A stretch of DNA of 64,000 nucleotides from a virus (IMGVR_UViG_3300045996_004585:1334-65333), one strand, 5' to 3'. Positions 9,381-48,800 are shown, counted from the stretch's first letter. Numbers and translations: made by a program. The notes: generated by a model not told the origin, from the sequence alone.

Positions 9381-9699
9381 TGAGACAATTGTCAGTAAGA
9401 AGGATTTGAAGATCGACTATTTCCGCGCAGGCGGGAATGGTGGCCAGAACCAGAACGCGCGAGACACGGGCGTGCGGATAACGCATCTCGCGAGCGGTGC
9501 GGTAGGCGAAGGTCGCGATTCTCGTTATCAGTTGCAGAATAAGAAGGCTGCATTTCGTCGTATGGCTAAGCATCCCAAGTTTAAGGTTTGGCTTGCCAAG
9601 CAATTAGGGCAAGAGCGCGAAGCCCAGATTCCAACTCGTCGTTACACTTACAAGGCACCCAACATTAGCCTTGAAGGAAGAAAGCTGGATCGAGAGTAA
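9355..9699 (+). CDS. arfB: ArfB/YaeJ-like peptidyl-tRNA hydrolase (RF-1 GGQ domain)
   Basis: DYFRAGGNGGQNQNARDTGVRITH matches the class-I release factor GGQ catalytic domain; basic C-terminal tail as in ArfB. Start set at an internal ATG to avoid a 65-nt overlap. Confidence 0.6.
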   Translation: MEKQTSKYSETIVSKKDLKIDYFRAGGNGGQNQNARDTGVRITHLASGAVGEGRDSRYQLQNKKAAFRRMAKHPKFKVWLAKQLGQEREAQIPTRRYTYKAPNISLEGRKLDRE

Positions 9700-27880: not shown

Positions 27881-28357
27881 ATGCAGCTAACTCTTGAACA
27901 GCAGCTTCTCCTAGCGCCCCAGGTGGCCGCTAGAGCGCACGCGCATCAGAAGCGCAAGGATGGAACGCCGTATATCGCGCATCCCGTTAGGGTGGCTCTG
28001 AGGGTCACCAAGAACACACAGTCGGGCAGCCCTTGGCAGATGACGTGTCAGATCGGCGCATTTCTACATGACGTGGTTGAGGATACCGATGTCACACTTG
28101 ACGATCTTCGTGAGCTTGGCTTTTCTGAGGGTGTGCTGGCGGTAATCGACCGTGTAACCAAGCGCCCCGGCGAGAAGTACAAGGACTTCATTCTTCGCAT
28201 CAAGGGCGACGGTCTGAGCGAAACCTCACTCTACGCCATCGCGGTGAAGCTGGCTGACATCGATGACAATGTTGAAGACCAGTCGGCCCTCGATCCCGAG
28301 GAAGCTGAGTTCCTTCGTGAGCGATACGAAAGGGCGCGTGAGGTTCTTGAAGCTTAA
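27881..28357 (+). CDS. small alarmone hydrolase, (p)ppGpp hydrolase HD domain (SpoT/Mesh1-like)
   Basis: AHQKRKDGTPYIAHPVRVA ... GAFLHDVVEDTD matches the RelA/SpoT HD hydrolase core; 158 aa single-domain protein. Confidence 0.75.
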   Translation: MQLTLEQQLLLAPQVAARAHAHQKRKDGTPYIAHPVRVALRVTKNTQSGSPWQMTCQIGAFLHDVVEDTDVTLDDLRELGFSEGVLAVIDRVTKRPGEKYKDFILRIKGDGLSETSLYAIAVKLADIDDNVEDQSALDPEEAEFLRERYERAREVLEA

Positions 28358-29427: not shown

Positions 29428-29445
29428 TGCTATACTTAGTCTATG
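29428..29445 (+). promoter_or_regulatory. extended -10 promoter element inside conserved motif TGnTATACTTAGTCTATG
   Basis: TGcTATACT ends 6 nt before the ATG at 29443. An identical 15-nt core recurs at 40031. Confidence 0.45.
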
Positions 29446-30642
29446 GAGGAAAATGTGATCACAGATGAGATGCAGGGTTCCAAGCATTTCCCGATGCTCT
29501 ACAAGCGCACGTCCACTGGCAAGATTCAGCAGTGGATGATCTTCGTGCAGAAGCACGGCGCAGCTTTTCATGGCGAGCCTGCCGAGATTGTCACTGTCTA
29601 TGGGCTTAAGGACGGCAAGATGCAGACGGCCGTCGAGGTAATCCGCGAGGGCAAGAACATCGGCAAGTCCAACGAGACGACTCCCTTTGAGCAGGCTGTG
29701 CTTGAGGCACAGTCGCAGTGGGAGAAGAAGTCCAAGAAGAGCTATGTCCAGAACATCGAGGACGCACAGGCTGGCATCGTAGACACGAACTTCATCACGG
29801 GTGGCATCGACCCGATGCTCGCCAAGAGCTACGACAAGGATGGAGCCAAGATTACATTCCCGGCCTATGTTCAGCCGAAGCTCGACGGCCACCGCTGCAT
29901 TGCCATCATTCAGGACGGCAAGTGTACGCTCTGGTCGCGCACCCGCAAGCCCATCACGGGTGTGCCACACATCGCACGTCAGCTTGAGCGCCTGCTTGGC
30001 GATCTGCCCGTTCCGATTGTGCTGGATGGCGAGCTTTACAATCACGACTACAAGGATCGCTTCGAAGAGCTTACGAGCTTCATTCGTCAGGCTACGCCGA
30101 AGCCCGGTCATGAGGTTGTCCAGTATTGGGTCTACGACATCGTAGAAGAGGGCAAGCCGTTCTCGCATCGTGTGCAGAATCTTGAGCTTCTTGGCGACAA
30201 GATCGCTGCATCGCACAACGGCAGCGGCGTGTCTGTCGTAGCCACCAATAATGTTCTCAACGAAGAGGACATGATGACCGTCTTCAGTATCTACATGAAC
30301 AACGGCTTTGAGGGTCTGATGGTGCGCAATTATAATGGCAAGTACAAGCACGGGCGATCTGCCGACCTACAGAAGGTCAAGACGTTCATGGACTCCGAGT
30401 ATGAAGTCGTGGCCATCGAAGAGGGCAAGGGCAAGATGGCAGGCAAGGCCATGTTCGTCTGCGATGCTGGTGACGGCAAGACGTTCCGCGTCAAGATGAT
30501 GGGCGCTCTCGATGACTTGAAGACTTACTTCGACAACCCCGAGCCGTGGATTGGCCGTCAGCTTACGGTCAAGTATCAAAATCTCAGTGCAGACGGACTG
30601 CCGAGGTTTCCCGTAGCTCTTCGCTTTAGGGAGGACGTGTGA
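29443..30642 (+). CDS. ATP-dependent DNA ligase
   Basis: Adenylation motif I KLDGHR; motif III VLDGELY; motif IV EGLMVRN; motif V KYKHGRS..LQKVK; C-terminal OB-like region. 399 aa, which is T7/Chlorella-virus ligase size. Confidence 0.75.
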   Translation: MEENVITDEMQGSKHFPMLYKRTSTGKIQQWMIFVQKHGAAFHGEPAEIVTVYGLKDGKMQTAVEVIREGKNIGKSNETTPFEQAVLEAQSQWEKKSKKSYVQNIEDAQAGIVDTNFITGGIDPMLAKSYDKDGAKITFPAYVQPKLDGHRCIAIIQDGKCTLWSRTRKPITGVPHIARQLERLLGDLPVPIVLDGELYNHDYKDRFEELTSFIRQATPKPGHEVVQYWVYDIVEEGKPFSHRVQNLELLGDKIAASHNGSGVSVVATNNVLNEEDMMTVFSIYMNNGFEGLMVRNYNGKYKHGRSADLQKVKTFMDSEYEVVAIEEGKGKMAGKAMFVCDAGDGKTFRVKMMGALDDLKTYFDNPEPWIGRQLTVKYQNLSADGLPRFPVALRFREDV

Positions 30643-31253: not shown

Positions 31254-31439
31254 GTTACTAACACAGAGTGGGAGATGATCGTTCACGCCGTTGACAACTT
31301 TGCCGCTGAGCTAGCTGGCGACGAGGAAGAGCTATTTTCCGCATTGGCCGAGAAGCTGTACGGACAACACTTCAATGGCGAAGTAGAGATTAAGGCCGCG
31401 CATGAAGAGGTTAGGCGCAGCAGAGTTGACAAGAACTGA
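31254..31439 (+). CDS. hypothetical protein
   Basis: GTG start overlapping the previous stop. The ORF-track version (31158) would overlap 31067..31261 heavily. Confidence 0.3.
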   Translation, partial: VTNTEWEMIVHAVDNFAAELAGDEEELFSALAEKLYGQHFNGEVEIKAAHEEVRRSRVDKN

Positions 31440-31496
31440 GCAGCCTGTTATGCTGTACAGTGACCTGTAATGCAACATCAATGAAAGGAAAGTGAA

Positions 31497-32519
31497 GTGG
31501 GCTTTATCTTTTTGTCAGTGATCCTGCTGTTGGTCGCAGTGTCGTCAGTTTGGGCATCGAAATTGGTGCCAGCGACACTCGTGACGAAGGATCGTTTTGG
31601 TGGGCCGATCACTGAGACTCCGAATCCCGTGCGCCGCATGGTGCGTATCGGCGGAATCGTAGTCCCGGTCGCGCTGATTCTGTTGTTCGGTGCATTCAAG
31701 TCCTTCCACACTGTGGACAACGGCCACATCGGCATTGTCAAGCAGTTCGGTGAGGTAGTCGATACGACTGGCGACGGTTTCGTGACCACCATGCCTTGGC
31801 AGAACCTGCACGAGGTTTCGGTCAAGCGCGAGGTTCGTAAGTACAACATGACCAACAGCGGCGAGAACCTGATCGGTTCTGCTGTGTCGAAGGACTCACA
31901 GCCGATCTTCATCGAGTTGGTCGTGGACTATTCGCTCGACCGCACCAAGGCCGTTGAACTGTACAAGGAGACAGGTGGCGAGTATGTCGAGCGCTTGCTC
32001 GATCCGGCAGTTCCCCAGCTAACGAAGGAAGTCACGTCGCAGTACAAGGCAACCGAGGTAGCAGGCAAGCGTGGTGAGATTCGTACCAAGATCGTAGAGT
32101 CTCTTGAGCGCGAGATGGAAGTCCTCGGTATCCTGATCAATCAGGTAAGCATTCCTCAGTTTAGCCCGACGCGAGAGCTAAGCAAGGCTATCGAGGAAAC
32201 GGTTGTAGCTGGTCAGCAGGCACAGCGTGCCGAGGCCCAGGTTGCCATCAAGGAGGCCGAGGCTCGCCAGGTGGCTGCTGCTGCTAAGGGTGAAGCTGAT
32301 GCTAACCGCGCACGTGCAATCGGTGAAGCTGATGCGATCAAGCTCAAGGCTCAGGCTGACGCATACGCAACGCGCGTTAAGGGTCAGGCGCTTCGCAACA
32401 ACCCGAGCGTCCTTACTCTTGAGTCGATCAACAAGCTCAATCCGCAGGTACAGTTGATTGTTCCCGAAGACAGCACGCTTGTTCAGGGACTCAACGGCAA
32501 GACGGTAGTAACTCCGTAA
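31497..32519 (+). CDS. SPFH/band-7 (HflK/C-, prohibitin-like) membrane protein
   Basis: GTG start with RBS AAAGGAAAG; N-terminal TM; IGIVKQFGEV SPFH core; long Ala/Glu/Arg coiled-coil C-terminus. Confidence 0.65.
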   Translation: MGFIFLSVILLLVAVSSVWASKLVPATLVTKDRFGGPITETPNPVRRMVRIGGIVVPVALILLFGAFKSFHTVDNGHIGIVKQFGEVVDTTGDGFVTTMPWQNLHEVSVKREVRKYNMTNSGENLIGSAVSKDSQPIFIELVVDYSLDRTKAVELYKETGGEYVERLLDPAVPQLTKEVTSQYKATEVAGKRGEIRTKIVESLEREMEVLGILINQVSIPQFSPTRELSKAIEETVVAGQQAQRAEAQVAIKEAEARQVAAAAKGEADANRARAIGEADAIKLKAQADAYATRVKGQALRNNPSVLTLESINKLNPQVQLIVPEDSTLVQGLNGKTVVTP

Positions 32520-33864: not shown

Positions 33865-33995
33865 AAGGACGCAATGTTTAGTTTACTTGCACATCAAGCT
33901 GACGCAGCTATGACTTGGCCTGATGTTGTTCTGATACTGGGCCTACCTATCTGTTTCGGCCTTGTCCTCTTCGTCATAGGAAAATGGTGGTAGGG

Positions 33996-34024
33996 TTGAC
34001 AAAACTCGTGACATCTGGTACATT
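33996..34024 (+). promoter_or_regulatory. sigma70-like promoter upstream of pnuC
   Basis: TTGACA, 17 nt, TGgTACATT. Transcription would start about 60 nt before the RBS AAGGGAGAG / ATG at 34089. Confidence 0.4.
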
Positions 34025-34088
34025 AATTAGTGAAGAGGTTAGGGTTCCTGATCGCCTAACCAAAAACAAAACAACAAGGGAGAGTACC

Positions 34089-34808
34089 ATGTTCGACAAG
34101 TTAGAAGGACTGTTCCACAGTGTGAAGTTCAACGTTGTGGTTGCAGCGCTGTTCGCGGTATTCGCATTCGTCGGATATCAGATGGGCGGACTAGAGTTTC
34201 TCACTGAGTGGGCTGGCGGCGTAGCTGCTGCTATCGGTATTGCCTGCTTGGTCTTCAAGACGCAGGGCTACTGGGCGTGGAGTATTGTCAACGCGATCCT
34301 GTGGTTCTACATGTTCTGGTATCAGTGGGACTTGCCGATGCTCGCTGGCCTACAGATCATGTACATTCTGTTCAGTCTCTACGGGTTGACAGTATGGGCA
34401 ACGACACATAACCGCATCGGCTATAGCGCAGAGAAGATCAAGGACAACATCGGCACGGTGTTGGGCCTTGGCATCCTGGCGTATGCAGTGTACGCTTTCC
34501 GAGGCTTGGAGGGCTACGCATTCACTGGTTGGTGGTGGGTGGAGTTCAGCGGAGTGCTGATCAGCATCGTAGCATTCTGGATGGACGCATTCAAGTACCG
34601 CACCAACTGGTTGGGATGGACAGCGACCAACTTCCTGTTCTTCCCGCTCTTCGTACACAACACGGGCACGTACTTCAACGGGCCTGCACTCTTGACTATC
34701 CTCTTCCAGACATTGTGCTTCTTCGGAATCTACAAGTGGTGGAAGGATCAGAAGGAAGCTGTCGAGAGCGGAGAAGTGGAACTAGTTGGTGGCGCACAGT
34801 ATGCATAA
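34089..34808 (+). CDS. pnuC: PnuC-like nicotinamide riboside transporter
   Basis: About 239 aa with 7-8 predicted TMs. Trp-rich helices (AWSIVNAILWFYMFWYQWD, FTGWWWVEF) are typical of PnuC. The internal ATG with a strong RBS is chosen over the ORF-track start because the promoter lies inside the longer ORF. Confidence 0.5.
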   Translation: MFDKLEGLFHSVKFNVVVAALFAVFAFVGYQMGGLEFLTEWAGGVAAAIGIACLVFKTQGYWAWSIVNAILWFYMFWYQWDLPMLAGLQIMYILFSLYGLTVWATTHNRIGYSAEKIKDNIGTVLGLGILAYAVYAFRGLEGYAFTGWWWVEFSGVLISIVAFWMDAFKYRTNWLGWTATNFLFFPLFVHNTGTYFNGPALLTILFQTLCFFGIYKWWKDQKEAVESGEVELVGGAQYA

Positions 34809-35046
34809 AGAATACGAGAATGTGTTGGGCACGTGTGATTGCGTGCCCAACATGTTCTCTTCTAAATCGTGTCGCAAGTGCGGGCGTCGTGCTGTAATGA
34901 CCGCCGAACACTTCAACGAGTGCATGATTAACCTATCGCAGTATCACTATGTGTTAAGCCAGATTCGTGATGGTGTATCGGATGGTCAGGCGCAAGATAT
35001 GGCTAAGCGAGTTCTTGATGGGGAGCGAAGTGTCAGACCTAACTAA
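34786..35046 (+). CDS. small zinc-ribbon protein
   Basis: CDCVPN ... CRKCG. Confidence 0.35.
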   Translation: MVAHSMHKEYENVLGTCDCVPNMFSSKSCRKCGRRAVMTAEHFNECMINLSQYHYVLSQIRDGVSDGQAQDMAKRVLDGERSVRPN

Positions 35047-35335
35047 AGAAGAAGTCGAGCAGCTAATCGAGGAATCGACTTGGCTGCTCAACATGCTTCA
35101 CAATGAATGGGGTGGGTGCGAAATCCTTTGCGCCCAAGCCGAACCTGTCCTACATCGACTGACCGCAGAAAGGTATAAGAATGACAAAGGAAACTGAGAA
35201 GAAGATTCTTGAACTGACGCTCTTCGGCCAGCAGACTGGTCATCATGCTGCGGTGAGCCACTATCCGCACCGTGTCACTGCTGTTGATGCGCTTGCTCTT
35301 CAAGAGAGACTGCGCGAGATTCGCAGGCTGGTCGA

Positions 35336-35923
35336 GTGGGGCGAGTCATGAGAGTCCAAGACTTGAAAGCTACAGGCAAGAAGCCGCGCGTTCATGGCAA
35401 TGGCTTTATTCAGCTTGACCTGAACGATGAGGGCACTCGTCGCCTGCATGTGTGGGATGAGAGCATCCCGCGACAGACTGTGGCTACACCTGTACACGAT
35501 CACGTCTTCGCCCTTAAGTCCAGGGTCATCGCAGGCACGCTGATCCATGAAGTGCTTGAGCCTATTGAGGGTGACACTCATCGTATCTTCCGAGCGCAGC
35601 AGGAAGAGGGCACACAGAACACAATCCTCGTACCGGATGAGGGCACGGTGGCTCTCAAGGTAGCAGAACGCTTTGTGCTTCCGGCTGGCGTCGAGTACGA
35701 GTTCCCAGCATGGGAGCTTCACCAAACTGATCATCGAGGACTGACAGCTACGATCATGGAGAAGATCGATGCGCCACAGGAGTATGGTCGTCCTCGTGTC
35801 CTCGTGCCCACAGGCCAAGAGCCTGACAACGAGTTCAAGCGTGATGGCATTGACCCTGAAACTCTGTGGCCATTGATTGAGCGAGCGCTAGAGCTTGCAC
35901 GCGCAATGGAGGAAGTGCTATAA
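35336..35923 (+). CDS. hypothetical protein (His-rich, possible cupin-like)
   Basis: PVHDHVFAL ... GTLIHEV His cluster; no firm assignment. Confidence 0.4.
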   Translation: MGRVMRVQDLKATGKKPRVHGNGFIQLDLNDEGTRRLHVWDESIPRQTVATPVHDHVFALKSRVIAGTLIHEVLEPIEGDTHRIFRAQQEEGTQNTILVPDEGTVALKVAERFVLPAGVEYEFPAWELHQTDHRGLTATIMEKIDAPQEYGRPRVLVPTGQEPDNEFKRDGIDPETLWPLIERALELARAMEEVL

Positions 35924-36156
35924 TGGAAGCGATGGGTTCTAATCTTCTCCCCGTTGAGGATGGGCTTCGCGTAGGAGAGTTCGTTACTCGTTTAGAGCAG
36001 CGAGGATATCCCATTACGGCAGATTCGCTTCCAGGCGTAGTGGCAATTGCTGACAAGGTGATCACCAGTGCCGAGCTTGACGAGAACGCAGAGTGGGTAG
36101 TGCTTTACTTGGAAGACAACACAACATTTAGAATCGAGGCTCGCTATGATGCATAA
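35923..36156 (+). CDS. hypothetical protein
   Basis: TAATG junction. Confidence 0.35.
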   Translation: MEAMGSNLLPVEDGLRVGEFVTRLEQRGYPITADSLPGVVAIADKVITSAELDENAEWVVLYLEDNTTFRIEARYDA

Positions 36157-36364
36157 CAGTTGGGAATACCGTCTGTGGCGTTGGTGCTACAACCTCGGTC
36201 GTAGGCTAGCGGGCGGTAAGGATGCATAAGCACAACTGGAATCTAATCGACAAGACAGTAATTGAGTCAGCATTTACGAAGCTGCTAAACAGCGGCCGTG
36301 CAGTTACCAGTTTCAAGATGGGCAACGCAGAGGTTGCGCGTGACATCGTTGTTCTTGTATTCAA

Positions 36365-36595
36365 GTGCGAGTGTGGCAAGATCAGGATCGAGGAACGATG
36401 ATGCGGCATCTGATTAGATTAGGCCGTGGGCTAGGCATTATGGTTATCATTCTTCTGCCCATTGCTGCGATTGTAGGATCAATTAAACTTCTGCTCGTCT
36501 TGGGTGACAATGGCTATGGCACTCATGTATTTGTTGTTTTCTCTGTCCTGCTAATAGGCGGGTTGGCATACAGTATTGGGAGTGATTTCGAATGA
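36365..36595 (+). CDS. small two-TM membrane protein
   Basis: GIMVIILLPIAAIVGSI / VFVVFSVLLIGGLAYSI. Confidence 0.35.
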   Translation: MRVWQDQDRGTMMRHLIRLGRGLGIMVIILLPIAAIVGSIKLLLVLGDNGYGTHVFVVFSVLLIGGLAYSIGSDFE

Positions 36596-36993
36596 GCGAA
36601 AAGATCGTGGCGAGCTATGCAGCCATCGAGTCAGTCCGCAACATCTGCGAGCCATGGATCGAGGCTTGGGGTGGCGACGAGTGGGGCGAGTCCATGTACA
36701 ATCTTCATGGTGCTGCGCACACTAGCTATGGTCTTTCAGATGAGGATTGCGCGACAGTTGCTGAAATCTTGCTTCGCAATGTCATTGAGGCCAAAGAGTT
36801 CGGAGATGAATATGGTAGCCCAGAGCAAGAGGCTCTGGCTCGCGCCGAAGCAACCAAACAGCGAAACTACTGGCTCAAGGGTGGCAACCTTGGTGACTGG
36901 CACACCACTATAGAGGACGCCAAATCTTCAATCGACCAGATGCCTGATTGGTTTTTCGAAGGGGGAGAAAGTGAAACTATCGACGGCACTTAA
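36592..36993 (+). CDS. hypothetical acidic protein
   Basis: ATGA junction. Confidence 0.4.
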   Translation: MSEKIVASYAAIESVRNICEPWIEAWGGDEWGESMYNLHGAAHTSYGLSDEDCATVAEILLRNVIEAKEFGDEYGSPEQEALARAEATKQRNYWLKGGNLGDWHTTIEDAKSSIDQMPDWFFEGGESETIDGT

Positions 36994-37285
36994 GCTAGTT
37001 CATGATGAGCTAGAGAGAGCGCAAGAGAATCACCCTAGCCCGATGCATGACCCTCATCACGGTTATGCAATCCTGCTTGAAGAGATTGATGAGCTATGGG
37101 CTGAGATTAAGGCCAGCCAGGGCACAACTCACCGTGGCGTTAGCGAGGCAGTACAAGTTGCTGCTATGGCGGTTCGATACCTCGTAGACCTATGCCCCGA
37201 CGAGACGGCCAAGGAACATACACACAAGGCAGAGGTTCATAAGGTTCAACGTTATGAAGGTGAGAGGGGAGGATACTCAGGATGA
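36971..37285 (+). CDS. MazG-like nucleotide pyrophosphohydrolase (all-alpha NTP-PPase)
   Basis: LLEEIDELWAEIKA (EExxE metal-binding motif) at the expected position in a ~100-aa helical protein. Confidence 0.45.
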   Translation: MKLSTALKLVHDELERAQENHPSPMHDPHHGYAILLEEIDELWAEIKASQGTTHRGVSEAVQVAAMAVRYLVDLCPDETAKEHTHKAEVHKVQRYEGERGGYSG

Positions 37286-37464
37286 TCGATAAGCTCTACG
37301 ATGTTTATTGGACGGATACCAGGAACAACAATGAGCGTTGTTCTGAGAAAGGTGGCCTTACGCGCGAGGAAGCAGAACGGATGATCGCTGAATGGGCGCG
37401 TGAGGCACCATTCTTTGTAGATTGCGTTATCCTACCCCACAATTCTAAGGAAGAACATGCGTAG
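37282..37464 (+). CDS. hypothetical protein
   Basis: ATGA junction. Confidence 0.3.
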   Translation: MIDKLYDVYWTDTRNNNERCSEKGGLTREEAERMIAEWAREAPFFVDCVILPHNSKEEHA

Positions 37465-38467
37465 AGGACTCGTAGTAGGTAAGTTCATGCCCCTGCACCG
37501 TGGGCATCAATTGCTCATCGAGACGGCTCTAGCGCGCTCTGATGAGCTTACAGTGGTAGTGTACGACTCTGAGGTTCCCGAGCGCTGGGCGAACGAGATG
37601 ATGCCTGTCGAGAAGAGGGCGCGTTGGGTTGCCGAGCTTTACCCTGGCATCCACAACATCGTGACGCAAGAGGATACACTTGGTGGCACGCACGAAGACC
37701 ATGACCACCCCAAGTATGCGCAGCATTACGCCGATCAGCTAGCGTACCTTGGCCCATTCACTCACGTGTTCAGCAGCGAAGAGTACGGTAAGCCGTTCGC
37801 TGAAGCTCTGGGCGCAGAACATGTGATGGTGGATGCTGCTCGTGAGCTTGTGCCGATGAGCGGCACCAAGTTCCGACAGAGCATGTACGAAAATCGTGCC
37901 TATGTCGATCCTCTCGTTTACCGTGATCTAGTACAAAAGGTGGTCTTCGTGGGCACTGAGAGTACTGGGAAGTCAACTCTCGCCAAGGCAATGGCCGAAG
38001 AGCTAAAAACACTGTACACTGAAGAGTACGGACGCTCTCTGTGGATTGAGCGTGACGAGCAAGGTGTGAAGCCCAGCTTCCATGACTTGCTCCACGTGGG
38101 TCAGACGCAGTACATGCAGGAGCAGGCGGCGCAGCTTCACGCCAATCGCTTCCTGTTCTGCGACACCAATGCATGGACGACCATGCTATGGAGCGAGATG
38201 TACTATGGCGCTGCGGATACACGGCTAATCGAGTTGGCTCGTCAAACCATAGGTGAGTACAAGTGGTTCCTCTGCTCTAACGATTTCGATTGGGTGCAAG
38301 ATGGCTACAGAGAACTGAAGGGCGACAAGTCCAAGAACTTCCAGAGGGTCAACGAAGCTACGTTGCAGCACTGGGGTATCGACTACCACATTCTGTCTGG
38401 CCCTGTTGAGCAGCGCATTCAACAGGTGAAGGACGACCTAGGCATTACGATAGGAGCATACGCATGA
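37457..38467 (+). CDS. nadR: NadR-like bifunctional NMN adenylyltransferase / ribosylnicotinamide kinase (no HTH domain)
   Basis: N-terminal GLVVGKFMPLHRGHQ (GxFxPxHxGH nucleotidyltransferase motif); second domain P-loop VFVGTESTGKSTLAKAMA; 336 aa. Confidence 0.7.
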   Translation: MRRGLVVGKFMPLHRGHQLLIETALARSDELTVVVYDSEVPERWANEMMPVEKRARWVAELYPGIHNIVTQEDTLGGTHEDHDHPKYAQHYADQLAYLGPFTHVFSSEEYGKPFAEALGAEHVMVDAARELVPMSGTKFRQSMYENRAYVDPLVYRDLVQKVVFVGTESTGKSTLAKAMAEELKTLYTEEYGRSLWIERDEQGVKPSFHDLLHVGQTQYMQEQAAQLHANRFLFCDTNAWTTMLWSEMYYGAADTRLIELARQTIGEYKWFLCSNDFDWVQDGYRELKGDKSKNFQRVNEATLQHWGIDYHILSGPVEQRIQQVKDDLGITIGAYA

Positions 38468-38630
38468 GTAAGCGAGACATCTTTTATATCTTCTTAGACG
38501 GACTTCTTCTTTCTTGGTTCCTTTACGAGGGCGGACGTTGGTTCGCGTTTATTGCTGGCATGTTGTTTGTATTGATTCTAAACAAGTTGTTCGACTGGTA
38601 CTTGCGCCGTCCTCGTGCTACACTGTAATT

Positions 38631-39305
38631 ATGACTCACGTTGTAGCTATCAGCGATCTGCACGGCAACCTGCCTGAGATTCCTGAGTGTGATCTTCTAC
38701 TGATTGCTGGGGATGTCACACCCGTATGGAATCACGAGCGCAAGTTCCAGGCTGACTGGTTGCGTAACGATTTCTCGCAGTGGCTGATGAACGCACCCGC
38801 ACGAGCCATCGTTGGTGTGGGAGGTAACCACGACTTCGTGCTTGAGGATAGCAAGAAGATCGGCTCCGAGCTACCATGGGTTTACCTTAACAACGAATCG
38901 GTGACTCTGGGCCAATTCCATGATGACGAGAACCCTCTAACTATTTGGGGGTCGCCGCTATCCAACATGTTCGGCAATTGGGCTTTCATGAAGTGGGAGG
39001 AAGAGCTTGTTGCCGAGTGGATGAACATCCCTCGTGACATCGACATCCTCATCACACACGGGCCAGCTTACGGCTATGGTGACCGTGTGCCTGATCACTA
39101 TGCGCACGACCGTGATCCACATGTGGGTTCGACTTCGCTTACCTATCAGCTTGAGAACGACGAGTGGCCGAACTTGAAGTTGCATGTCTTCGGGCACATC
39201 CATAACGGGTATGGCTCCTACGTTGGCCCTACTCTCATGGTCAATGCAGCACACGTCAACGAGGAATACAAGCCTGTCAACGCACCAGTGGAGCTAGAGC
39301 TATGA
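38631..39305 (+). CDS. calcineurin-like metallophosphoesterase
   Basis: DLHGN, GDV, GNHD, GH-x-H motif series (ISDLHGNL; IAGDVTP; GGNHDF; FGHIHNG). ATG at 38631 chosen, after a small TM ORF. Confidence 0.6.
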   Translation: MTHVVAISDLHGNLPEIPECDLLLIAGDVTPVWNHERKFQADWLRNDFSQWLMNAPARAIVGVGGNHDFVLEDSKKIGSELPWVYLNNESVTLGQFHDDENPLTIWGSPLSNMFGNWAFMKWEEELVAEWMNIPRDIDILITHGPAYGYGDRVPDHYAHDRDPHVGSTSLTYQLENDEWPNLKLHVFGHIHNGYGSYVGPTLMVNAAHVNEEYKPVNAPVELEL

Positions 39306-40906: not shown

Positions 40907-41436
40907 GTAACCCCTACGTGATGTACGGACTGAAGCCGAGTAGCTCCGCTCTTCTGAGCGGGGCTGTTCTGCTTTCCTCTGATCAGTATGACATCAAGAT
41001 CAGACACCTTGAGGGGATTGGCCTTAGCACGGCCAGCGCAACAATGTCCCTAACAGCCGCAGAGATGATCGAGGCTTACAAGGCGCTATGGGAGCCGATC
41101 CAGGTTACAGCCACCAGCACCATGTATCGTTTCAAGGCCGCCACTATTCCTTACACGGGCCGCCAATACACGCCCCCTGAGCCAGTGGAACCGCAGGATG
41201 TCATGGACGAATGGTGGAATCAGCATAATGCGCTGGCCGACAAGTTCGCGGACAACTTCATCATTGCGACTACAGGCACGTTCCTCATTGAGGGTGACGA
41301 GGACGAAGACTTCACCTATGGCGCATTCTTGCAGGCCATCGCGAACCTTAATCTGCGTGACGATCAGTGGATTCTTGCTCGCGAGTTCGGCAACTACTAC
41401 TCCGTGCGCAACATTGACATTCTACTCAACTCGTGA
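40903..41436 (+). CDS. hypothetical protein
   Basis: Overlapping stop/start with the previous gene. Confidence 0.45.
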   Translation: MSNPYVMYGLKPSSSALLSGAVLLSSDQYDIKIRHLEGIGLSTASATMSLTAAEMIEAYKALWEPIQVTATSTMYRFKAATIPYTGRQYTPPEPVEPQDVMDEWWNQHNALADKFADNFIIATTGTFLIEGDEDEDFTYGAFLQAIANLNLRDDQWILAREFGNYYSVRNIDILLNS

Positions 41437-41452
41437 TAAGATAGGAGCATCT

Positions 41453-42617: not shown

Positions 42618-42887
42618 ATGAGCGGCAGCATCGTGTTTGTCCTGGTCGAACTAGATGACGGCGTGCAGGAGTTTTTCGAAACTGCTTACGATGGCTTCAA
42701 GTTTGCGAAGGAAGCAGAGCAGCGACGTAGGGGCAGTGTTGAGTACGTGGCTGTGGGCGAATTCTACGAATCAGAAGGATCAATCTATGCTGGCCAAGAG
42801 CTAAGGCACCTGCTTAGGTCGCTCGACAACGTACATGGATGGCTTAAGGCGCAGCATGAAGCAGAGACACATGAAGAGACAGATTAG
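42618..42887 (+). CDS. hypothetical protein
   Basis: RBS-like GGATTGAGGG upstream. Confidence 0.4.
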   Translation: MSGSIVFVLVELDDGVQEFFETAYDGFKFAKEAEQRRRGSVEYVAVGEFYESEGSIYAGQELRHLLRSLDNVHGWLKAQHEAETHEETD

Positions 42888-45800
42888 CAAGCTAGCGGCA
42901 CGAGTGTACGATGCTCTCGTTGAGGATGTAAGAGCTAATCTAACACCGGAATTGCTCAAGCCAGAGTTCAGGGAGTCTCCGTTCCCTACTGGCCACTGTT
43001 ATGTCGCCGCAGAGGCTATTTATCACTTAGCTGGTGGGCCTGAGTCAGGTCTAAAGCCTATGCGCCTACGTATGCCTGACGGTGTAGTACATTGGTGGCT
43101 TCAAACGGCTGAGGGTGAAGTCATCGATCCCACACATGATCAGTACCACGAACCTGTACCATACGCCCAGGGCCGCTCAGGAGGCTTCCTGACGGCCTCT
43201 CCGTCCAAACGGGCTAGAGAGGTCATGAAGCGCGTCACAGGGGCTGTAAAGACCGCACAAGAGCTTGTGTTGATTGAGCCTAGAGAGTACAAGTTCCATG
43301 GTGGTGGCTATCCCTTCTTCTACATCCCCAGTGAGCAGAAGCTATATGTGATGCCCGCACATGCGTTTCACACTGACATGGCACTCAATGACCCCGAGTT
43401 ACGGGAATTAATCAAGAACTACATGGTCAATACCTATCGCACAACAACAGCGCCGTACATCCCAGGTCGCATCCATCTTGATCGCCCAGGTGCAACAGAT
43501 GGTGAAGTTGATGTGTATGGGGAAATTGTTGGTATCGATGCTAAGAACCACTGGCAGCCAATCCTTCAATCCATGGTTGATCAGTGGTGGGGCACAGAGA
43601 TTCCAGTGACTACAAGCGACTATCAAGGCGATGAGTTTGAAGCAGAGCCTGATGAGTTAGGCGAGTACCGCGATGTTCTCTCTGGTTATGAACAGCAGAT
43701 GGGGCGAGTAGCCAAGATTGTCAATCTTCCAGCGTTCGAGAAGACCCATGATGGTGACGAACCCACAAAAGACACGTGGAGGCGAACGTTCGTCTACCTC
43801 CCCACCACTGACACGCTCTACCTAGCGAATCACAACGCATATCACACAGATATCTGGCGCTGGATCGCTGAGCAGAACCCTGACATGGACTGGGAGCCAC
43901 TACACAATCGTGAGGTAGAGCCATCTCTGGGCTTGATCCAACGCAATTATGATGACAAGCAGCTTGAGGTTCATTACTACCACGCCGAGGGTGCGCCATT
44001 ACCCGATCACATGATGTTCGAATTAGAAGAGCATCTAGGTGAACACATGTCGCAGGTGCCGTGGCAGTATCCTCGCCCACTCGCTGACGACTGGTATGGC
44101 GATTGGGACGATGACGATTACGGTGCGACAGAACAGTGGCCCACAGACACCAAGAGCATCGCTCGACTTTCAACACAGTTTGATCACCCCATCGAGAATC
44201 CAGTCAACTATGACTTCGTGCCTCTGTCGCCTCTTGAGACAACAGCATGGGACACTTTGACACCAAGAGAGCGACACTGGTGGAGACGTAAGGCGCTTAA
44301 GTTGAACAACTACAGTGACAACCGAGGCAAGGTTAGACCACAAGATTTGCATGCACTTTATACCCGTTACCAGGGCTTTTGTGCATATTGTGGTGGGCCA
44401 GGAGCCACAAGTTGGGATCATGTCATCCCACTATCGCAGGGTGGCCAGAACGCTATTGAGAACCTGTTGCCTTGCCATCGCGAATGCAATGGACAGTTGA
44501 ATGACTGGGATCAACGTATGAATCCATTTGATCCAAACTCCCAGACTAAGCCTCCCGGCTACTGGGGCTTCCAACCTGCTGAGGCTGCTGTGGATTGGTC
44601 GCGCTCTGATCGCGTTCCTTACCAGTTTGGATTCGCGTTTATGTATCACGAGGGTGAACTATATGTAACTCACAATGGTCATCATCCAGACCTAATGCGT
44701 GAGTACTTGCGACAACAGGGGAGCCAAGAGCTAGAAGCAATCCAAGGAGTACGAGCCTTCAAGGAACAGGTTAAGGCTGGCAAGACAGTCTTTGGCTGGG
44801 TAAATCGCGACGACATCGAGTTTGTGAGTGGTAGTGCAGGCGACGACATGGCGTGGCATGCCGATCCTAAGCTCAAAGCTGAAGCGCATGGGGCTGTTAA
44901 GCAGTACATGCAGGAACATAAGACAGCAGGCACATTGTCTACCAAGTTCATTAACATAACCGATGACATTTGGCCCAATTATCCTCACAAAGATTCAAGT
45001 AGTTTCGCATGGATGTATCTCGATGGCACACTTTACGTATTGAACACAGGCCATCATCCCGACATCATGCGCTGGTATTTGAAGAATAAAGCTTTGGGGA
45101 GCCGCGATCTTGCACGAGCTTTCAAGGAGGCTATTGGAGAGGGTCGCGCTGTGTTCGGTTGGACAGTAAATGCAGACTCTGCTGTGTTAAGCGGCAACGC
45201 GCCTGACTCTATGGCCCGTCAGGCTCCACCCGAATTACAAGCAGAAGCACTCGCTGCTTGTGATGCATATATCGAATCTTTGCGAGCTACCTACAAACGA
45301 GCAGGCACACAGCCTGTCGAGTTAATGGTGTCAGATGACAGGCGCTGGCACTTCGATGACTATCTCAAGAGATACGACCGATTCGCATGGGTTTACTTCG
45401 ACGGCACCCTCTACTGTGGTGACTTGCACAGGGATATCATGGCCGAGATGAGACGAGAAGGTTTAGACTTCAGAAATGGAGCTTACTACGGCTGGTATGA
45501 TCCTTGGGGCAAGGAAGCGCCCAAGCAACCGAATGGTATTGACTACGTAACAGATTACGGCGAGCAGCATGAGGCACTGTTGCCTGAAGTCGAAGCGTTT
45601 TTTGAGCGTTATCCGCCTAAAGCTGTCCTTGACTACCTCAAGCATGGCACAAGACTAGGTGCTGCGCCCATGAAGGTGATGCGCGTGAAGACACCGCGCA
45701 CGAAGTTCCGTGGGGTCTATGGCATGCCCTTTAGTTATGTGCCCAGTCTCAACACCATCTTCCTTGCAGACTCGCACACCTATCACACGCGCATGTGGCC

Positions 45801-48800
45801 ACGACTGCCTGAAGAGTTTAGGCGCATAGTTTTAAGTGAACGGGCATCTATGGTCAATGGGCACATCGTTCCGGTCAAGGGAGATTACCTTGGTGGAGTT
45901 CAGTTCTATCTAGAACAAGATCAGATCGTAGACGAGGCGACAGCGGCAGCGATCCAGGATGCGCTCGTGCCCTACGTCGAACAGCTTGAGTTCGAAGAGG
46001 AAGAGTACGTCGAAGAGACTAAGCCCGGTGACCAGGATCAGCTATCGCTATTAGGGAAGACAAGTGCCGATTGGGGTTGGCTCATGAACGATATCGAGTA
46101 CAAAGCACAAGAGATTGCTGCTCGTCACAATTGGGAAATGACATTTGAATGGCGGGGGATGCCAATGTCAGATTGGGATGGCCGAAAGTATTACAATGGC
46201 GATATTGGTGGAAGGGTTGACTTTCAGGTTCCCTGGTTTTTAGCAGAGAGTGACGAGACGTGGTTGCCTGATCAGATTACCACTGTCATATTCACTGCGC
46301 CACCTATTGTTGACAAGCTCACTTACTACATTGCACTACATGAGCTAGGGCACATGGCATTCGTGAGTCAATATGGGCGAGATGTTAACAGTCAGGAAGA
46401 AGAGTTCTGGGCGATGCATTGGGCTATTGAGAACGGTGGTGGCGTAGTGGATCGCGCAACTATGGAATACGCCGCTGATTTCGTCAACTCATATTTCACT
46501 GGCGAGGCTGTAGAGCAAGGTATTAAGCGTCGAGCGCCGTCCCTTCCTTACAAGTATGTTGAAGACACACGTTTCCAGCAATTGCCGCTCAGCAAAGTTG
46601 CAGGCACAACGATGTATCGTGTTCTCCCAAAGAAGTTCCGTGATTTTGTGATGAAGCATGGATTAGTTAGATTGCCGGATCACAGTGGCAGCATGGATGA
46701 TGCGAGATTGTACGTTTTTCAAGACTTAGATTCTGCGCGATTGTTTGCAGAACATTATCGTCATTATCAAACCTCAGATATCTGGCGTATCAATGCGCCC
46801 ACTGATCTGCCGATAAAGTTTGACCCACGAGATTATCCACTTCTCGGCGTTGAGCATCCAGATGTAGATGAAGTTGGCTATTGGAAGCCCACACCATTCT
46901 ATCTCCATGTGGATATTCCGCCCGAATATGTAGAGCTTGTCGATACAGTGGTTGGTGCGCGTCAGTTTGATACAAGTCTATCTAAGACCGCCAACGAGGA
47001 CGACATCTGGGTAGATGGCCTGCCATTTCATGAAGCGCTCGATGGTCAAGTGGCGTTCTTACTCTACCCTGATTTGCTCGTAGCTGCCGAAAGCACGGGC
47101 CACAACGACATTAGACGATGGGTGCGAGAGAACAGGCCCGAGTTGTTGCGTGAGGAAATCCTACAGGGCTACAGCCGCGTTGTCCAGGGCAGGCCATCAG
47201 TAAGCTCATACGAGTATGGCTTGCACACTGAAGACTCGTTCCCTGGCCTAACCAAGCGCGTGTTCAACCTCGCGCTCTTCAACGAGGTTGAAGTTGCCGA
47301 CTTCGATGTAATCCGAGGTTTGAGTAAGGAGGCAGCATTGTCTCCTTCAGACTTTGAGAAGGGCGACTACTACACTGAGGTCATCCACAACATCTGGATT
47401 TACAACGGTGTCACCAAGAAGCTTTACTATGGCCACATAAAGCCAACAGTTGAGCGCAATCTTTCGTCATGGGAAGACAACCACCCTGAGCTTATGCGTC
47501 GGTACCGTGATGAGTTGGGTGGCGAGAATCGAGACAAGAATGTCTATGGTTGGTGGGTGAGGCGCATTGATGATGGATCACTTCGACCTATCATCCATAG
47601 TGACGCTTTCTCTAACACACGACGATGGGAGCCGCTAGTCGAAGAGGCATTTGAAGCAGCAAAGGCTGCGATTTCAGAACAAGAGCGACCCATCGTAGAG
47701 GATTACCGTTATTCATCCAGGTGGTCTGAGATGCCGCCGATTGGCTCACAGTGGGAGTGGCACAACGATCAGTTCGAGAATATGCTAACGGTCGTTCGCC
47801 TCGATCCACGCAACGAGGTTGTCATCATCCGTGGTCAAGCGGGACATGAGGTAGAGATTCATCTAGATGACTGGCACGAGTATGTGAGTGATGGCATGTT
47901 AAAGACGGCAGCAGCAACAGATTACATCTGGGTCTACGATCCTAACACAGGAGAACTACTCATACACGAGGAAGATTATGGATTGGTTAGACACGTGACA
48001 TTGATGGCTCAGCTTGGCGACAAAGAATATGCCAAGACGCTTTGGGGTGGTCACTGGCGCGACGGTGAAATAGATGTGCAGCATTGGCCCGCGAAAATAC
48101 TCGATTGGAATATGTCAATAGAGGAACGAGAGCAGGCAACTCAAGAAGCACTCAAGGAAAAGGAAGACGCATACGCTGCGGTAAGAGCCAAGCTTGGCTC
48201 AGTGCGTGTAGGTGCCGCTATTCCTTATGAGTGGGTGGAGTTATACGATTCAGCCAGCGAGCAATACATGAAGGGTTCTTTGCCATTCGTGTATATAGAT
48301 GGCAAAATCTATATTGCTAATGGGTCAGCTTATCACACGGCGATATGGAGAGCGCTGAAGCGAAACGATTTGGTGCGCCACATTAGCACTGATCAATACG
48401 TTCAGGGATGGGTGAGCATTAGTGGTGATATCCACTTCTATGAGGGCGATGAGGCATGGCCTGACCCTGATCCTGAAGTGCTGAAGCAGATTAAACAGGC
48501 AGTAAGAGAAGCACATGATGAGCGCGTCAATGAGCGAGCCGATATGGGAGACTGGTTAACAACGGCGGCATGGCCGAGTAATCCTGCTTGGGTCTATGAC
48601 CCTGAGGTTGATAAGCTTTACGTTGGCCAATGGCACCAGGACATCATTAGAAGGAACAAGCTGATGGGTAAGGCTAAATTAGAGCGTGACCCTGACGGCG
48701 ACTTTGATTTGGTTCGATTCACTACGTCGCTCGTGCTGGGCTGGCATCATGCTGGCGTCTTCTCTGATTATGGCGCGAGTACTGCAACAGAAGAGCAGAA

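Follow-up and report, generated by a model that had tools for sequence, protein, structure and literature searches.

A candidate NARP3-type nicotinamide riboside salvage locus with a riboswitch-like leader in an uncultivated phage

Do a transporter gene and a nadR-like gene that lie apart on the genome of an uncultivated phage together encode a route from nicotinamide riboside (NR; vitamin B3) to NAD+, and if so, what controls this route and what does it serve? The two genes are found in a 64-kb stretch of viral DNA (64,000 nt in full; the window). A phage origin of the window is supported by many PHROG matches, coding on one strand and the presence of ThyX, TK, an ATP-dependent ligase and beta-helix fibre-like proteins. 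Structural hallmark genes were not identified within the window, and its phage had no megablast match in INPHARED. GMP reductase and a dNMP kinase are also encoded in the window. All ORFs of the initial annotation were found at their coordinates on the + strand (Table 1). We consider it probable that the locus represents NARP3-type NR salvage of a large uncultivated phage, with the leader of pnuC acting as a translational switch.

Table 1. Features of the pnuC-nadR locus; positions are counted from the first nucleotide of the window
Feature	Position	Strand	Description
39-aa hydrophobic ORF	33874..33993	+	AAAGGA ribosome-binding site 4 nt upstream; stop directly before -35 hexamer
Promoter	33996..34024	+	sigma-70-type, extended -10: TTGACA-N17-(TGg)TACATT
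Leader RNA motif	34036..34085	+	conserved 5'-leader element of pnuC, candidate riboswitch
Leader P1 stem	34037-34043 paired with 34055-34061	+	covarying, 6-7 bp
Leader loop GUUCCUGAUCG	34044-34054	+	11 nt, invariant
Leader A-rich tail AAAACAACAAGGGAG	34068-34082	+	invariant; includes Shine-Dalgarno 34078-34082
pnuC-like ORF	34089..34808	+	PnuC-family transporter, 239 aa, ~8 TM helices, presumed NR importer
Variable island of small ORFs	34786..36993	+	between pnuC and nadR
'MazG-like' ORF	36971..37285	+	104 aa, four-helix, all-alpha NTP-pyrophosphohydrolase-like fold
60-aa ORF	37282..37464	+	overlaps nadR start
nadR-like ORF	37457..38467	+	HTH-less bifunctional: N-terminal NMN adenylyltransferase (NMNAT) domain, C-terminal ribosylnicotinamide kinase (RNK) domain
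54-aa hydrophobic ORF	38464..38628	+	between nadR and phosphoesterase
Metallophosphoesterase	38631..39305	+	MPPED2-type (class III phosphodiesterase-like); syntenic neighbour of nadR in phage lineage

The transporter and the bifunctional enzyme

The proposed PnuC-like permease is recognised by Pfam (PF04973, 59.1 bits, cut-off 27.3) and PHROG (phrog_1880 'PnuC-like', E 1.4e-11). In the PDB, the fold of the AF2 model of the protein (pLDDT 88.8) significantly matches PnuC 4QTN alone (prob 1.0, TM 0.59), and the profile of its 22-member clade also reached 4QTN (E 3.8e-4). The WxxWxxxN motif is invariant, and the C-terminal tail, GEVELVGGAQYA, is conserved and clade-specific. Among isolated phages no match to this protein was found by tblastn. 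The second protein had been described as a NadR without HTH but with both the NMNAT motif and the RNK P-loop, and this description was confirmed. It scored 109.8 bits with AAA_28, 29.2 bits with CTP_transf_like (Pfam) and 198.9 bits with phrog_3462 (PHROG), and it did not reach the NCBIfam equivalog cut-off. The full E. coli-type NadR model aligned from model position 66 on, and the HTH is therefore absent. The protein carries the motifs GKFMPLHRGH, SGTKFR, Walker A GTESTGKST, FCDTN and DGYRE, of which nearly all residues are invariant or at least 90% conserved among 28 relatives. The best solved relative is Bas30_86 (PDB 9x6f/9x6h, E 1.8e-31), with which K10, F11, F110, S112, E230 and K168 are shared; other solved relatives are 1lw7, 8x7f and 6gye. 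By family, fold, catalytic motifs and analogy with the homologous Bas30_86/87 pair, the two proteins would form the route from NR via NMN to NAD+ that had been suggested for them.

Both genes occur on at least 12 related contigs, identified as shared by their equal lengths. In the 12 distinct phage-like loci, the window included, pnuC is located upstream of nadR on one strand, and in nine of these, small ORFs spanning 0.7-4.9 kb come between the two. Relatives show spacings of 0 to 4.9 kb, with pnuC and nadR adjacent in one of them, and in the window the gap is 2.65 kb with about nine ORFs inside. As convincing terminators and internal promoters are absent in between, we infer that the two genes are co-transcribed. 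The island ORFs encode 86 aa (with CxxC motifs), 56, 195, 77, 59, 76 (TM) and 133 aa. The sole family match among them is that of the 195-aa ORF to phrog_4784, an uncharacterised family, and this is the only island ORF recurring at the same position, in the related loci L076/77 and L078. Among cellular sequences, the pnuC-nadR operons of Gaiellaceae/Actinomycetota MAGs are nearest (NadR 50-58%, PnuC 36-45% identical), and where actinobacterial contigs are of high GC, the two genes directly adjoin each other. An operon like those of Gaiellaceae and other Actinomycetota appears to be the source of the pair and its leader, and in the phage lineage this operon appears to have been split later by the insertion of small ORFs. 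The cellular NR salvage of Haemophilus influenzae (V-factor) and of E. coli/Salmonella employs both protein families with the same motifs, but NadR of the window is without the HTH regulatory domain and its nearest kin are actinobacterial, not proteobacterial.

A conserved leader RNA upstream of pnuC

The promoter claimed for pnuC itself was located. Its strict pattern occurs three times in the window, always on the + strand, against 0.05 expected, and L076/77, L078 and L035 likewise have a promoter of this type upstream of pnuC. The 39-aa ORF reported ahead of pnuC also exists, ribosome-binding site included, but as its stop abuts the -35 hexamer it closes the transcription unit upstream and lies outside that of pnuC; no homologue of it was detected in the related loci. 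The predicted transcript start is about 6 nt ahead of P1, the stem of an RNA element shared by 26 distinct sequences from phages and actinobacteria. In these, the six pairs of P1 are formed in 100% of cases, each of them with double-sided changes, and the covariation score is 0.621 vs 0.201+/-0.021 for shuffled alignments (0/500 shuffles). The hairpin was also predicted independently by RNAalifold. The CM (R1) matched the leader with 47.5 bits (E 1.6e-9) and nothing else in the window, and across 734 kb it gave one match per locus, always upstream of pnuC; the Rfam 15 models, searched at E<=10, did not recognise the leader. Loop (11 nt) and A-rich tail (about 12 nt) are unchanged across phage and bacterial genomes of 38-72% GC while the stem varies freely, and bacterial leaders have variable hairpins inserted between P1 and tail that leave both intact. 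The UUCC of the loop is able to pair with the Shine-Dalgarno (SD) sequence of pnuC, and a pseudoknot may thus form, for which the invariance of the loop leaves no covariation signal. Three Gaiellaceae contigs retain just 20 codons of pnuC, and there the motif stands in front of nadR, which ties the RNA to NAD+ salvage and not to the transporter alone. We regard the leader as a candidate for a previously undescribed NAD+-type riboswitch that would bind a ligand and gate the pathway.

With its layout P1-GUUCCUGAUCG-P1'-..AAAACAACAAGGAG, the leader may be compared to the NAD+-II riboswitch (pnuC motif) of Streptococcus (PMC7749635, PMC9841397, PMC10085692), which reads AGAGC-GUUGCGUCCGAAA-[P1a]-ACG-GCUCU-UU-AAAAACAAAAGGAGA and forms a UCC:GGA pseudoknot on the SD (PMC10085692, PMC9841397). 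Both have a P1 stem in the pnuC 5' UTR, a loop or junction that starts with GUU, holds a UCC pairable with the GGA of the SD and ends in ..CG, an A-rich 3' tail in which a single C is conserved a few nt ahead of GGAG, and a predicted translational OFF logic. They differ in that the leader is without the P1a stem, has an 11-nt closed loop lacking GCG instead of the GCG of J1 and the 13+3-nt internal loop, carries variable hairpins in its bacterial versions where NAD+-II has UU(U), and is spread among Actinomycetota and phages. The preQ1-I riboswitches are small H-type pseudoknots with a P1 of 5-7 bp, a loop of about 11 nt and an A-rich tail ending in the SD (e.g., ..AACAAAACAAGG in T. tengcongensis). 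The leader resembles them in size, P1 length, loop length and the A-rich tail into the SD, and differs in loop sequence, gene context and the lack of an Rfam match.

It is a real possibility, although we lean against it, that the hairpin is a constitutive structure and not a ligand sensor, i.e., an mRNA-stabilising 5' stem-loop, a site for a protein or sRNA, or a fixed damper for a potentially toxic membrane protein; the anti-SD-like loop could damp translation constitutively. The covariation is confined to P1, the fold energy of the leader in the window is ordinary (z = -1.07), no Rfam family matches, and a transcript beginning this close to P1 is typical of protective 5' hairpins. On the other hand, an invariant loop and tail combined with a freely changing stem is what characterises a tertiary or ligand-binding core as opposed to a generic hairpin, the inserted hairpins disturb neither P1 nor tail, the outline is common to the NAD+-II and preQ1-I pseudoknot riboswitches, and the element is associated exclusively with pnuC/nadR.

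Relation to NARP3 and role in infection

Import of NR followed by conversion to NAD+ was proposed as a phage anti-defence route in the discussion of Osterman et al. (bioRxiv 10.1101/2024.02.11.579819), and NARP3 was demonstrated in August 2026 for Bas30_86/87 of T5-like coliphages. There the transporter binds NR, the enzyme converts NR to NAD+, and the pair imports NR and rescues from DSR1 and, 10^3-10^4-fold, from Sir2-HerA (Sci Adv 2026, PMC13464706). With a proposal in 2024 and this demonstration the counter-defence idea for PnuC/NadR is no longer new. Judged by sequence, the locus is a distant NARP3-type member. As in NARP3 of Epseptimavirus/Markadamsvirinae (Bas30_86 NadR-like, Bas30_87 PnuC-like), a PnuC transporter and an HTH-less NMNAT-RNK NadR are encoded on one strand, and the expected chemistry is the same. 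However, identity is about 31% between NadR and Bas30_86 and only about 20% between PnuC and Bas30_87 (hhalign E 0.005 for the latter), nadR precedes pnuC in NARP3, and the phage lineage of the window is from soil metagenomes. In Salmonella phage S114 (MH370367) the genes are 1 nt apart instead of 2.65 kb, and the leader motif is absent by CM search. The same NARP3 pair has been annotated in S114 since 2018. Phage NAD+ reconstitution with NMNAT chemistry is also known from NARP2/KVP40 NadV-NatV and jumbo-phage NAD+ synthesis clusters, but NARP2 starts at nicotinamide and PRPP through Nampt, and neither Nampt, Nudix nor other NAD+ genes were found within the window.

By analogy, the rescue by the homologous NARP3 pair supports the suggestion that the phage regenerates NAD+ against NAD+-depleting defences. 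The genes might instead be a general auxiliary metabolic module providing more NAD(P) for phage nucleotide enzymes and for long infection in nutrient-poor soil hosts with or without a NADase defence. This is possible but to us somewhat doubtful: the window is rich in genes of nucleotide metabolism using or feeding from NAD(P)H (GMP reductase, ThyX, TK, dNMP kinase), such a reading has been given to the NAD+ synthesis genes of KVP40-type and jumbo phages (PMC11662467), and cellular Gaiellaceae use the same operon and leader for ordinary homeostasis, whereas the extent of the NARP3 rescue speaks for counter-defence, as do the Macro and NADAR genes that related phages carry in this island, which suggest a conflict over NAD+/ADP-ribose. 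The metabolic and the counter-defence role are mutually compatible. A point against our main reading is that no NAD+-dependent enzyme is obvious among the phage's own proteins, since its ligase is ATP-dependent.

Neighbouring genes, transported substrate and proposed switch

The calcineurin-like metallophosphoesterase was correctly named, as PF00149 (37.8 bits, cut-off 21.5), the best PDB relative (MPPED2 3rl4, E 1.3e-19 over the whole domain) and a complete DxH..GD..GNH..H..GHIH metal site agree; it differs from the MPPED2/239FB enzymes in being a phage protein of 224 aa. For the MazG-like pyrophosphohydrolase the ORF was confirmed, and support for its identity is at the level of fold: searches of Pfam, NCBIfam and PDB sequences extended to E<=10 gave the ORF no match, and none of 25 homologues has a Pfam domain. 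Synteny is what backs the claim that the phosphoesterase processes ADP-ribose or NAD+-derived products, the gene being downstream of nadR in eight of 11 distinct related phage loci and sometimes immediately so (L028, L035). We find it unlikely that the two proteins act in the NAD+ pathway, e.g., as hydrolases of ADP-ribose, of cyclic ADPR or gcADPR signals, or of nucleotides derived from NAD+. MPPED2-type relatives do hydrolyse cyclic nucleotides, but the phosphoesterase is missing from cellular pnuC-nadR operons, L170 and L171, the order ligase..pnuC..nadR..mpe..o286 is backbone synteny, and the MazG-like ORF is conserved in none of the related loci. Moreover, nadR is adjoined by RtcB in L076 and L078 and by HD_4 in L079, which makes RNA repair or nucleotide signalling as good a context for the phosphoesterase.

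Mutation of N45, Q94 and N180 abolished NR binding of Bas30_87 (PMC13464706). The corresponding residues in the window are A47, S96 and N181, i.e., one of three is conserved, and of the four residues contacting NR in N. mucosa PnuC, three are missing. The Gln of helix 5 (Q94 in Bas30_87, Q124 in N. mucosa PnuC) is Ser or Ala throughout the clade, and the TIGR01528 score (29.9) is under the NCBIfam equivalog cut-off (42.45). A protein carrying another vitamin or nucleoside, as PnuT, PnuX and PnuN, and uncoupled from NadR would fit these differences, but is very improbable given that pnuC and nadR abut or overlap in over 20 actinobacterial contigs, that pnuC invariably comes first in the phage lineage, that WxxWxxxN is invariant, and that the common leader remains at nadR after loss of pnuC.

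For NR salvage under control of the leader the following course of events is conceivable. Transcription from the host-type promoter would give an RNA of which the first 50-60 nt fold as a hairpin, and the invariant loop would pair with the SD of pnuC. PnuC, a facilitator of PnuC/SWEET-like fold, would admit NR, which the RNK domain of NadR would trap by phosphorylation (NR + ATP to NMN) and the NMNAT domain would adenylate (NMN + ATP to NAD+). This would restore an NAD+ pool that is needed by phage replication and destroyed by Sir2, TIR, SEFIR or DSR-type defences. The leader is most likely a translational OFF switch; a plentiful ligand with a nicotinamide moiety (NAD+ or NMN) would stabilise the loop-SD pseudoknot and keep pnuC silent, and a collapse of NAD+ would free the SD and turn pnuC on. 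It is this riboswitch-like leader ahead of the importer gene that is new at the locus.

The PnuC and NadR proteins

In the initial annotation a PnuC-like permease and an HTH-less NadR were read as a complete route from nicotinamide riboside (NR) through NMN to NAD+. This reading is correct and the concept is already published: NadR together with PnuC was suggested as a third NAD+ reconstitution route by Osterman et al. (bioRxiv 10.1101/2024.02.11.579819), and the pair was named NARP3 in Sci Adv on 12 August 2026 (PMC13464706). In that study, which includes crystal structures, the PnuC-like Bas30_87 binds NR, the NadR-like Bas30_86 converts NR to NMN and then to NAD+, and the pair rescues phage from Sir2-HerA and DSR1 (PMC13464706). 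In the T5-like Salmonella phage S114 a NadR and PnuC pair has been annotated since 2018.

As in NARP3, the window encodes a PnuC-type transmembrane transporter. Its membership of the PnuC family is established by a PF04973 score of 59.1 bits (gathering cut-off 27.3) and a match to a PHROG family annotated as PnuC-like. The sole significant PDB fold match of its AF2 model (pLDDT 88.8) is PnuC 4QTN, and a profile built from its clade retrieves the N. mucosa PnuC structure; the NCBIfam equivalog cut-off for PnuC (TIGR01528) is not reached (29.9 vs 42.45 bits). Identity to Bas30_87 is about 20% (hhalign E 0.005). N45, Q94, and N180 of Bas30_87, each essential to NR binding (PMC13464706), correspond to A47, S96, and N181, i.e., only the Asn of WxxWxxxN is retained, and the Gln position is Ser or Ala throughout the clade, cellular members included. 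Similarly, Q124, Q196, N214, and Y242 of the N. mucosa protein correspond to S96, F163, N181, and F206. The clade has invariant polar residues of its own (N68, Q89, D166, K169, and Q207 in the window) and the phage members have a nearly invariant C-terminal cytoplasmic tail, GEVELVGGAQYA (residues 223–239), in which V230, V233, G234, G235, and A236 do not vary. This tail is without counterpart in Bas30_87 and may be an interaction motif, e.g., with NadR.

The NadR-like enzyme has the NARP3 layout of a truncated protein without HTH, carrying NMN adenylyltransferase (NMNAT) and ribosylnicotinamide kinase (RNK) domains. The match to the E. coli-type model NF005988 spans positions 66–387 of 411, CTP_transf_like and AAA_28 each score above cut-off, and the catalytic motifs GKFMPLHRGH, SGTKFR, GTESTGKST, FCDTN, and DGYRE are in place. 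None of the canonical motifs (HxGH, ISSTxxR-like, Walker A/B, and LID Arg) is missing; nearly all residues of the catalytic motifs are invariant or at least 90% conserved among 28 relatives. The cut-off of TIGR01526 (341.15) is not reached at 175 bits, yet the alignment is full-length (model positions 2–317 of 325). The closest solved structures are Bas30_86 (9x6f/9x6h; the best PDB match), at about 31% identity, followed by the NadR proteins of E. coli, H. influenzae, and L. lactis. Mutation has shown K10/F11, F110, S112/D115, E230, D275, E80/P84/G89, and K10/S37 to be needed in Bas30_86 (PMC13464706). K10, F11, F110, S112, and E230 are identical in the window protein, Glu stands in for D115 and D275, and S37, E80, P84, and G89 are replaced by Y, L, T, and D, respectively.

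Given family membership, motifs, conserved linkage and an experimentally characterised homologous pair, it is quite probable that PnuC imports NR and that NadR converts it to NAD+ in two steps. As to purpose, a counter-defence role and general metabolic support appear evenly balanced.

Organisation and origin of the locus

In sequence and in organisation the locus departs from published NARP3, of which it is a new variant. NARP3 is a compact operon of two adjacent genes, whereas the window pair is separated by 2,648 nt holding about nine ORFs. In 12 distinct phage-like loci of 47–53% GC (the window, L027, L028, L029/30, L035, L063, L076/77, L078, L079/80, L169, L170, and L171) pnuC lies 5' of nadR on one strand, usually with an MPPED2-type gene downstream. 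The gap between the two genes ranges among relatives from an overlap (L171) through 0.6–2.2 kb to 4.9 kb (L079), and holds differing small ORFs from locus to locus. With a shared strand, a single strict-type promoter upstream and no convincing terminator, co-transcription of pnuC and nadR in the window is possible. The overlapping cassette of L171 (GCA_034680565.1, JAXOUH010012724.1) stands behind the same leader motif as in the window, and is probably the ancestral arrangement of the phage lineage.

The nearest cellular proteins (50–58% identity for NadR, 36–45% for PnuC) come from metagenome-assembled genomes (MAGs) of Gaiellaceae and other Actinomycetota with 66–72% GC, where pnuC abuts nadR. 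NadR homologues are present in 744 deposited phage records, and an identical (100%) NadR is found on an 88.8-kb JGI contig; relatives occur on contigs of up to 110–256 kb from soil-type metagenomes. A single-NadR query of IMG/VR gave no related locus and an alignment query only one close locus, L001. Among 50,697 phage records no match was found by megablast of the 5.6-kb region, by tblastn of a 1068-aa window protein, or by tblastn with the window PnuC, so the lineage is not among isolated phages.

The initial annotation had also placed two further enzymes in the region. The metallophosphoesterase holds, as a complete MPPED2-type enzyme (PF00149, 37.8 vs 21.5 bits) with a full metal set in the 3rl4 alignment (D9xH11, GD37, GNH76, H(thgp), and GHIH). 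The MazG-like assignment fails by profile: the ORF has no match to Pfam MazG, PRA-PH, MazG-like, or dGTP_diPhyd_N, even at E ≤ 10, and none of its homologues carries a precomputed Pfam domain. Both the phosphoesterase and this ORF, which is all-alpha NTP-PPase-like, are best seen as neighbours with no assigned function. A 195-aa ORF of phrog_4784 with a conserved HGNGFIQLDL..HVW..HDH motif, for which no Pfam or PDB sequence relative was found, lies between pnuC and nadR also in three relatives (L076/77 and L078). Just 5' of the NAD+ region lies a gene, served by a promoter of its own, for an SPFH/Band-7 membrane protein; it is conserved near the same stretch in L169.

The promoter previously proposed for pnuC is statistically real. 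The window has three matches to TTGACA-N14-TGnTAnnnT, always on the + strand, against 0.05 expected; the three fall within 10 kb, and the rest of the window has none. Promoters of this type also precede pnuC in relatives and are frequent across related loci, a distribution that suggests early or middle transcription units dependent on host sigma-A.

In or beside the pnuC-nadR-mpe stretch of relatives, genes for Macro domain, NADAR, isochorismatase-family (nicotinamidase-like), RtcB, and HD_4 proteins were observed, and the Macro, NADAR, isochorismatase, and RtcB genes point to an island for ADP-ribose, NAD+, and RNA repair. Macro, NADAR, isochorismatase, and RtcB genes are absent from the window itself; when 63 window ORFs were swept with Pfam for more genes of NAD+ metabolism (Nampt, Nudix, Macro, NADAR, and Sir2), none was found.

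The window is coding almost wholly on the + strand, at about 52% GC, and its gene set is typical of a large phage, many ORFs belonging to PHROG-only families. Besides the genes tabulated, it encodes a dNMP-kinase fragment, beta-helix fibre-like proteins, and an AAA_5 ATPase paired with a DUF2201 protein. The RF-1-domain, HD_4, and CCA-adding proteins form a translation/tRNA-rescue set. An N4-like virion RNA polymerase was considered for the 3504-aa ORF and rejected, since only phrog_12251 and an HNH insert, and no polymerase profile, were matched; a permuted tmRNA called by ARAGORN inside this ORF is probably a false positive.

Coordinates of features in the window and in related pnuC/nadR loci (L numbers; phage-like or actinobacterial contigs)
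Feature	Location	Strand	Remarks
GMP reductase	3644–4669		
ThyX	5476–6318		
Thymidine kinase	8443–8991		
RF-1-domain protein	9316–9699		ArfB/peptidyl-tRNA-hydrolase-like
HD_4 protein	27881–28357		RelA/SpoT-type hydrolase-like
ATP-dependent DNA ligase	29443–30642		
Strict promoters	31426–31454, 33996–34024, 41414–41442	+	perfect TTGACA, 17-nt spacer, TGn extended -10
SPFH/Band-7 protein	31497–32519		
Leader motif	34036–34085; L001 3694–3741; L006 1283–1364; L028 5097–5145; L171 4773–4820		~35 other loci
pnuC	34089–34808		
PnuC C-terminal tail	34755–34808		
phrog_4784 ORF	35336–35923		
ORF annotated as MazG-like	36971–37285		
nadR	37457–38467		
Metallophosphoesterase (mpe)	38631–39305		
3504-aa ORF	42835–53349		N-terminus phrog_12251; HNH endonuclease domain inserted at ~480–570
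ARAGORN tmRNA*	49541–49965	opposite	
CCA-adding enzyme	53350–55623		300-aa N-terminal extension
pnuC/nadR overlapping cassette	L171 4827–6522		
Macro, NADAR, isochorismatase-family, RtcB genes	L079 11056–11535; L078 17066–17521, 7937–8461, 14520–15887; L076 7452–8888		
Leader motif with pnuC remnant	L011 5859–6004; L012 5850–5995; L065 1100–1245		Gaiellaceae

The RNA leader of pnuC

The part of the locus most deserving follow-up is an RNA motif 5' of pnuC that Rfam does not recognise. It emerged when the stretches from promoter to pnuC start were compared among relatives, and is common to phage and actinobacterial pnuC-nadR loci. A hairpin, P1, closes an invariant loop of 11 nt, GUUCCUGAUCG, and is followed by a nearly invariant A-rich tail, AAAC(C/A)AACAAGGAG, or AAAC(C/A)AACAAGG(G)AG across the loci compared, which ends in the Shine-Dalgarno (SD) sequence 5–9 nt before the start codon; in the window the actual pnuC start codon is preceded by AAGGGAGAG. 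In high-GC actinobacterial operons one or two extra variable hairpins are placed between P1 and the tail. The P1 stem varies by locus with pairing always kept: GGUUAGG/CCUAACC in the window and GGUAGG/CCUACC, ACGAGC/GCUCGU, CGCGG/CCGCG, GUGAC/GUCAC, or GGCGGC/GCCGCC elsewhere. In an alignment of instances selected for at least four stem pairs, from which the variable insert was cut, each of the six P1 pairs is formed in 100% of cells and carries double-sided substitutions (46 cells in total; 26 distinct sequences). The covariation score is 0.621, compared to 0.201 ± 0.021 for shuffles (none of 500 as high) and at most 0.156 for slid partners, and RNAalifold predicted the same stem independently from natural phage sequences.

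A covariance model of the motif gave one match per locus in 734 kb, each directly upstream of pnuC; in the window it matches the pnuC leader only, and it has no match in the T5-like NARP3 locus. Rfam 15 (4227 models, the pnuC family perhaps not among them) gave no + strand match at E ≤ 10 in 33950–34150 and none at E ≤ 1 in eight motif-bearing loci. A search of a limited literature set for the loop sequence or an actinobacterial pnuC riboswitch returned nothing relevant. The pattern GTTCCTGATCG-N5-35-AACAAGG has 88 matches in IMG/VR. Among these, L001 alone combines the stem with a pnuC context; the others fit a rough chance estimate made by hand (18 specified bases, variable gap).

The motif was compared with the NAD+-II riboswitch, the pnuC motif of Streptococcus. 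The S. parasanguinis aptamer reads AGAGC-GUUGCGUCCGAAA-[P1a]-ACG-GCUCU-UU-AAAAACAAAAGGAGA, U12C13C14 pairing with G-G-A of the SD and the A-strand lying in the P1 minor groove (PMC10085692, PMC9841397). The order in the window is P1-GUUCCUGAUCG-P1'-(linker)-AAAACAACAAGGAG. Both elements are located in the pnuC 5' UTR (in the window, after the promoter and before the ATG at 34089), with the SD in a possible pseudoknot. They share a junction starting with GUU, a (U)CC:GGA pseudoknot with the SD, which is a prediction in our case, a G-A past the pseudoknot strand, a terminal CG, and an A-rich tail with a conserved C. On the other hand, NAD+-II joins P1 and P1a by a large internal loop (GUUGCGUCCGAAA / ACG), whereas the window motif has a covarying P1 and no P1a; its closed loop keeps only GUU..(U)CC..G(A)..CG of the NAD+-II junction and lacks the GCG. 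As P1a and the junction GCG are missing, we place the leader outside that family and treat it as an element that would work like NAD+-II, by means of an H-type pseudoknot that sequesters the SD.

Loop UUCC is complementary to the SD GG(A/G)(G/A) in 26/26 sequences, and since the loop is invariant this pairing is without covariation support. A tentative reading, to which we give slightly less than an even chance, is that the leader switches translation in response to a nicotinamide nucleotide as its ligand. The main rival of this reading is a constitutive structural or protein-binding hairpin. A DNA operator (NadR, NiaR, or NrtR box) was rejected because varying, covarying arms around an invariant asymmetric centre are the opposite of what a protein operator displays.

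In three Gaiellaceae loci all that is left of pnuC is a remnant of 20 codons (MIDRLGRHVGSPLLHAAIAA*), which separates the leader motif from nadR. Here the motif precedes nadR, which it appears to control through this leader-peptide-like mini-ORF.

Implications for phage NAD+ metabolism

The protein pair by itself adds a distant, environmental member to a counter-defence pathway so far known only from phages of Enterobacteriaceae. It indicates that a phage lineage quite unlike those gained NR-based NAD+ reconstitution independently, its source being an operon of actinobacterial type. Of the two, the leader RNA holds more promise: this motif is small (~45 nt) and covaries strongly, and it goes with pnuC/nadR in genomes of two widely different kinds. 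To our knowledge NAD+ is one of a small number of universal cofactors for which hardly any riboswitches are known.

Returning to the ligand-responsive switch, it is tempting to speculate, with confidence that stops a little short of even, that the leader is an undescribed riboswitch class or a minimised, P1a-less relative of NAD+-II that senses NAD+ or NMN, has its home in actinobacterial pnuC-nadR operons (those of Gaiellales and others), and was captured with the operon by a lineage of large soil phages, in which it gates counter-defence. A counter-defence of the NARP3 type would then be self-regulating in the phage, the NR importer being translated only when host NAD+ collapses, e.g., when an NADase defence fires. 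If true, this would be the first case of a metabolite-sensing RNA gating an anti-defence pathway in a phage, and NAD+ riboswitches would reach well past Acidobacteria (class I) and Streptococcus (class II). A leader sensing NAD+ or NMN would also be of use as a compact genetic part that responds to NAD+, and would link riboswitch biology to the conflict over NAD+ between phages and bacteria.
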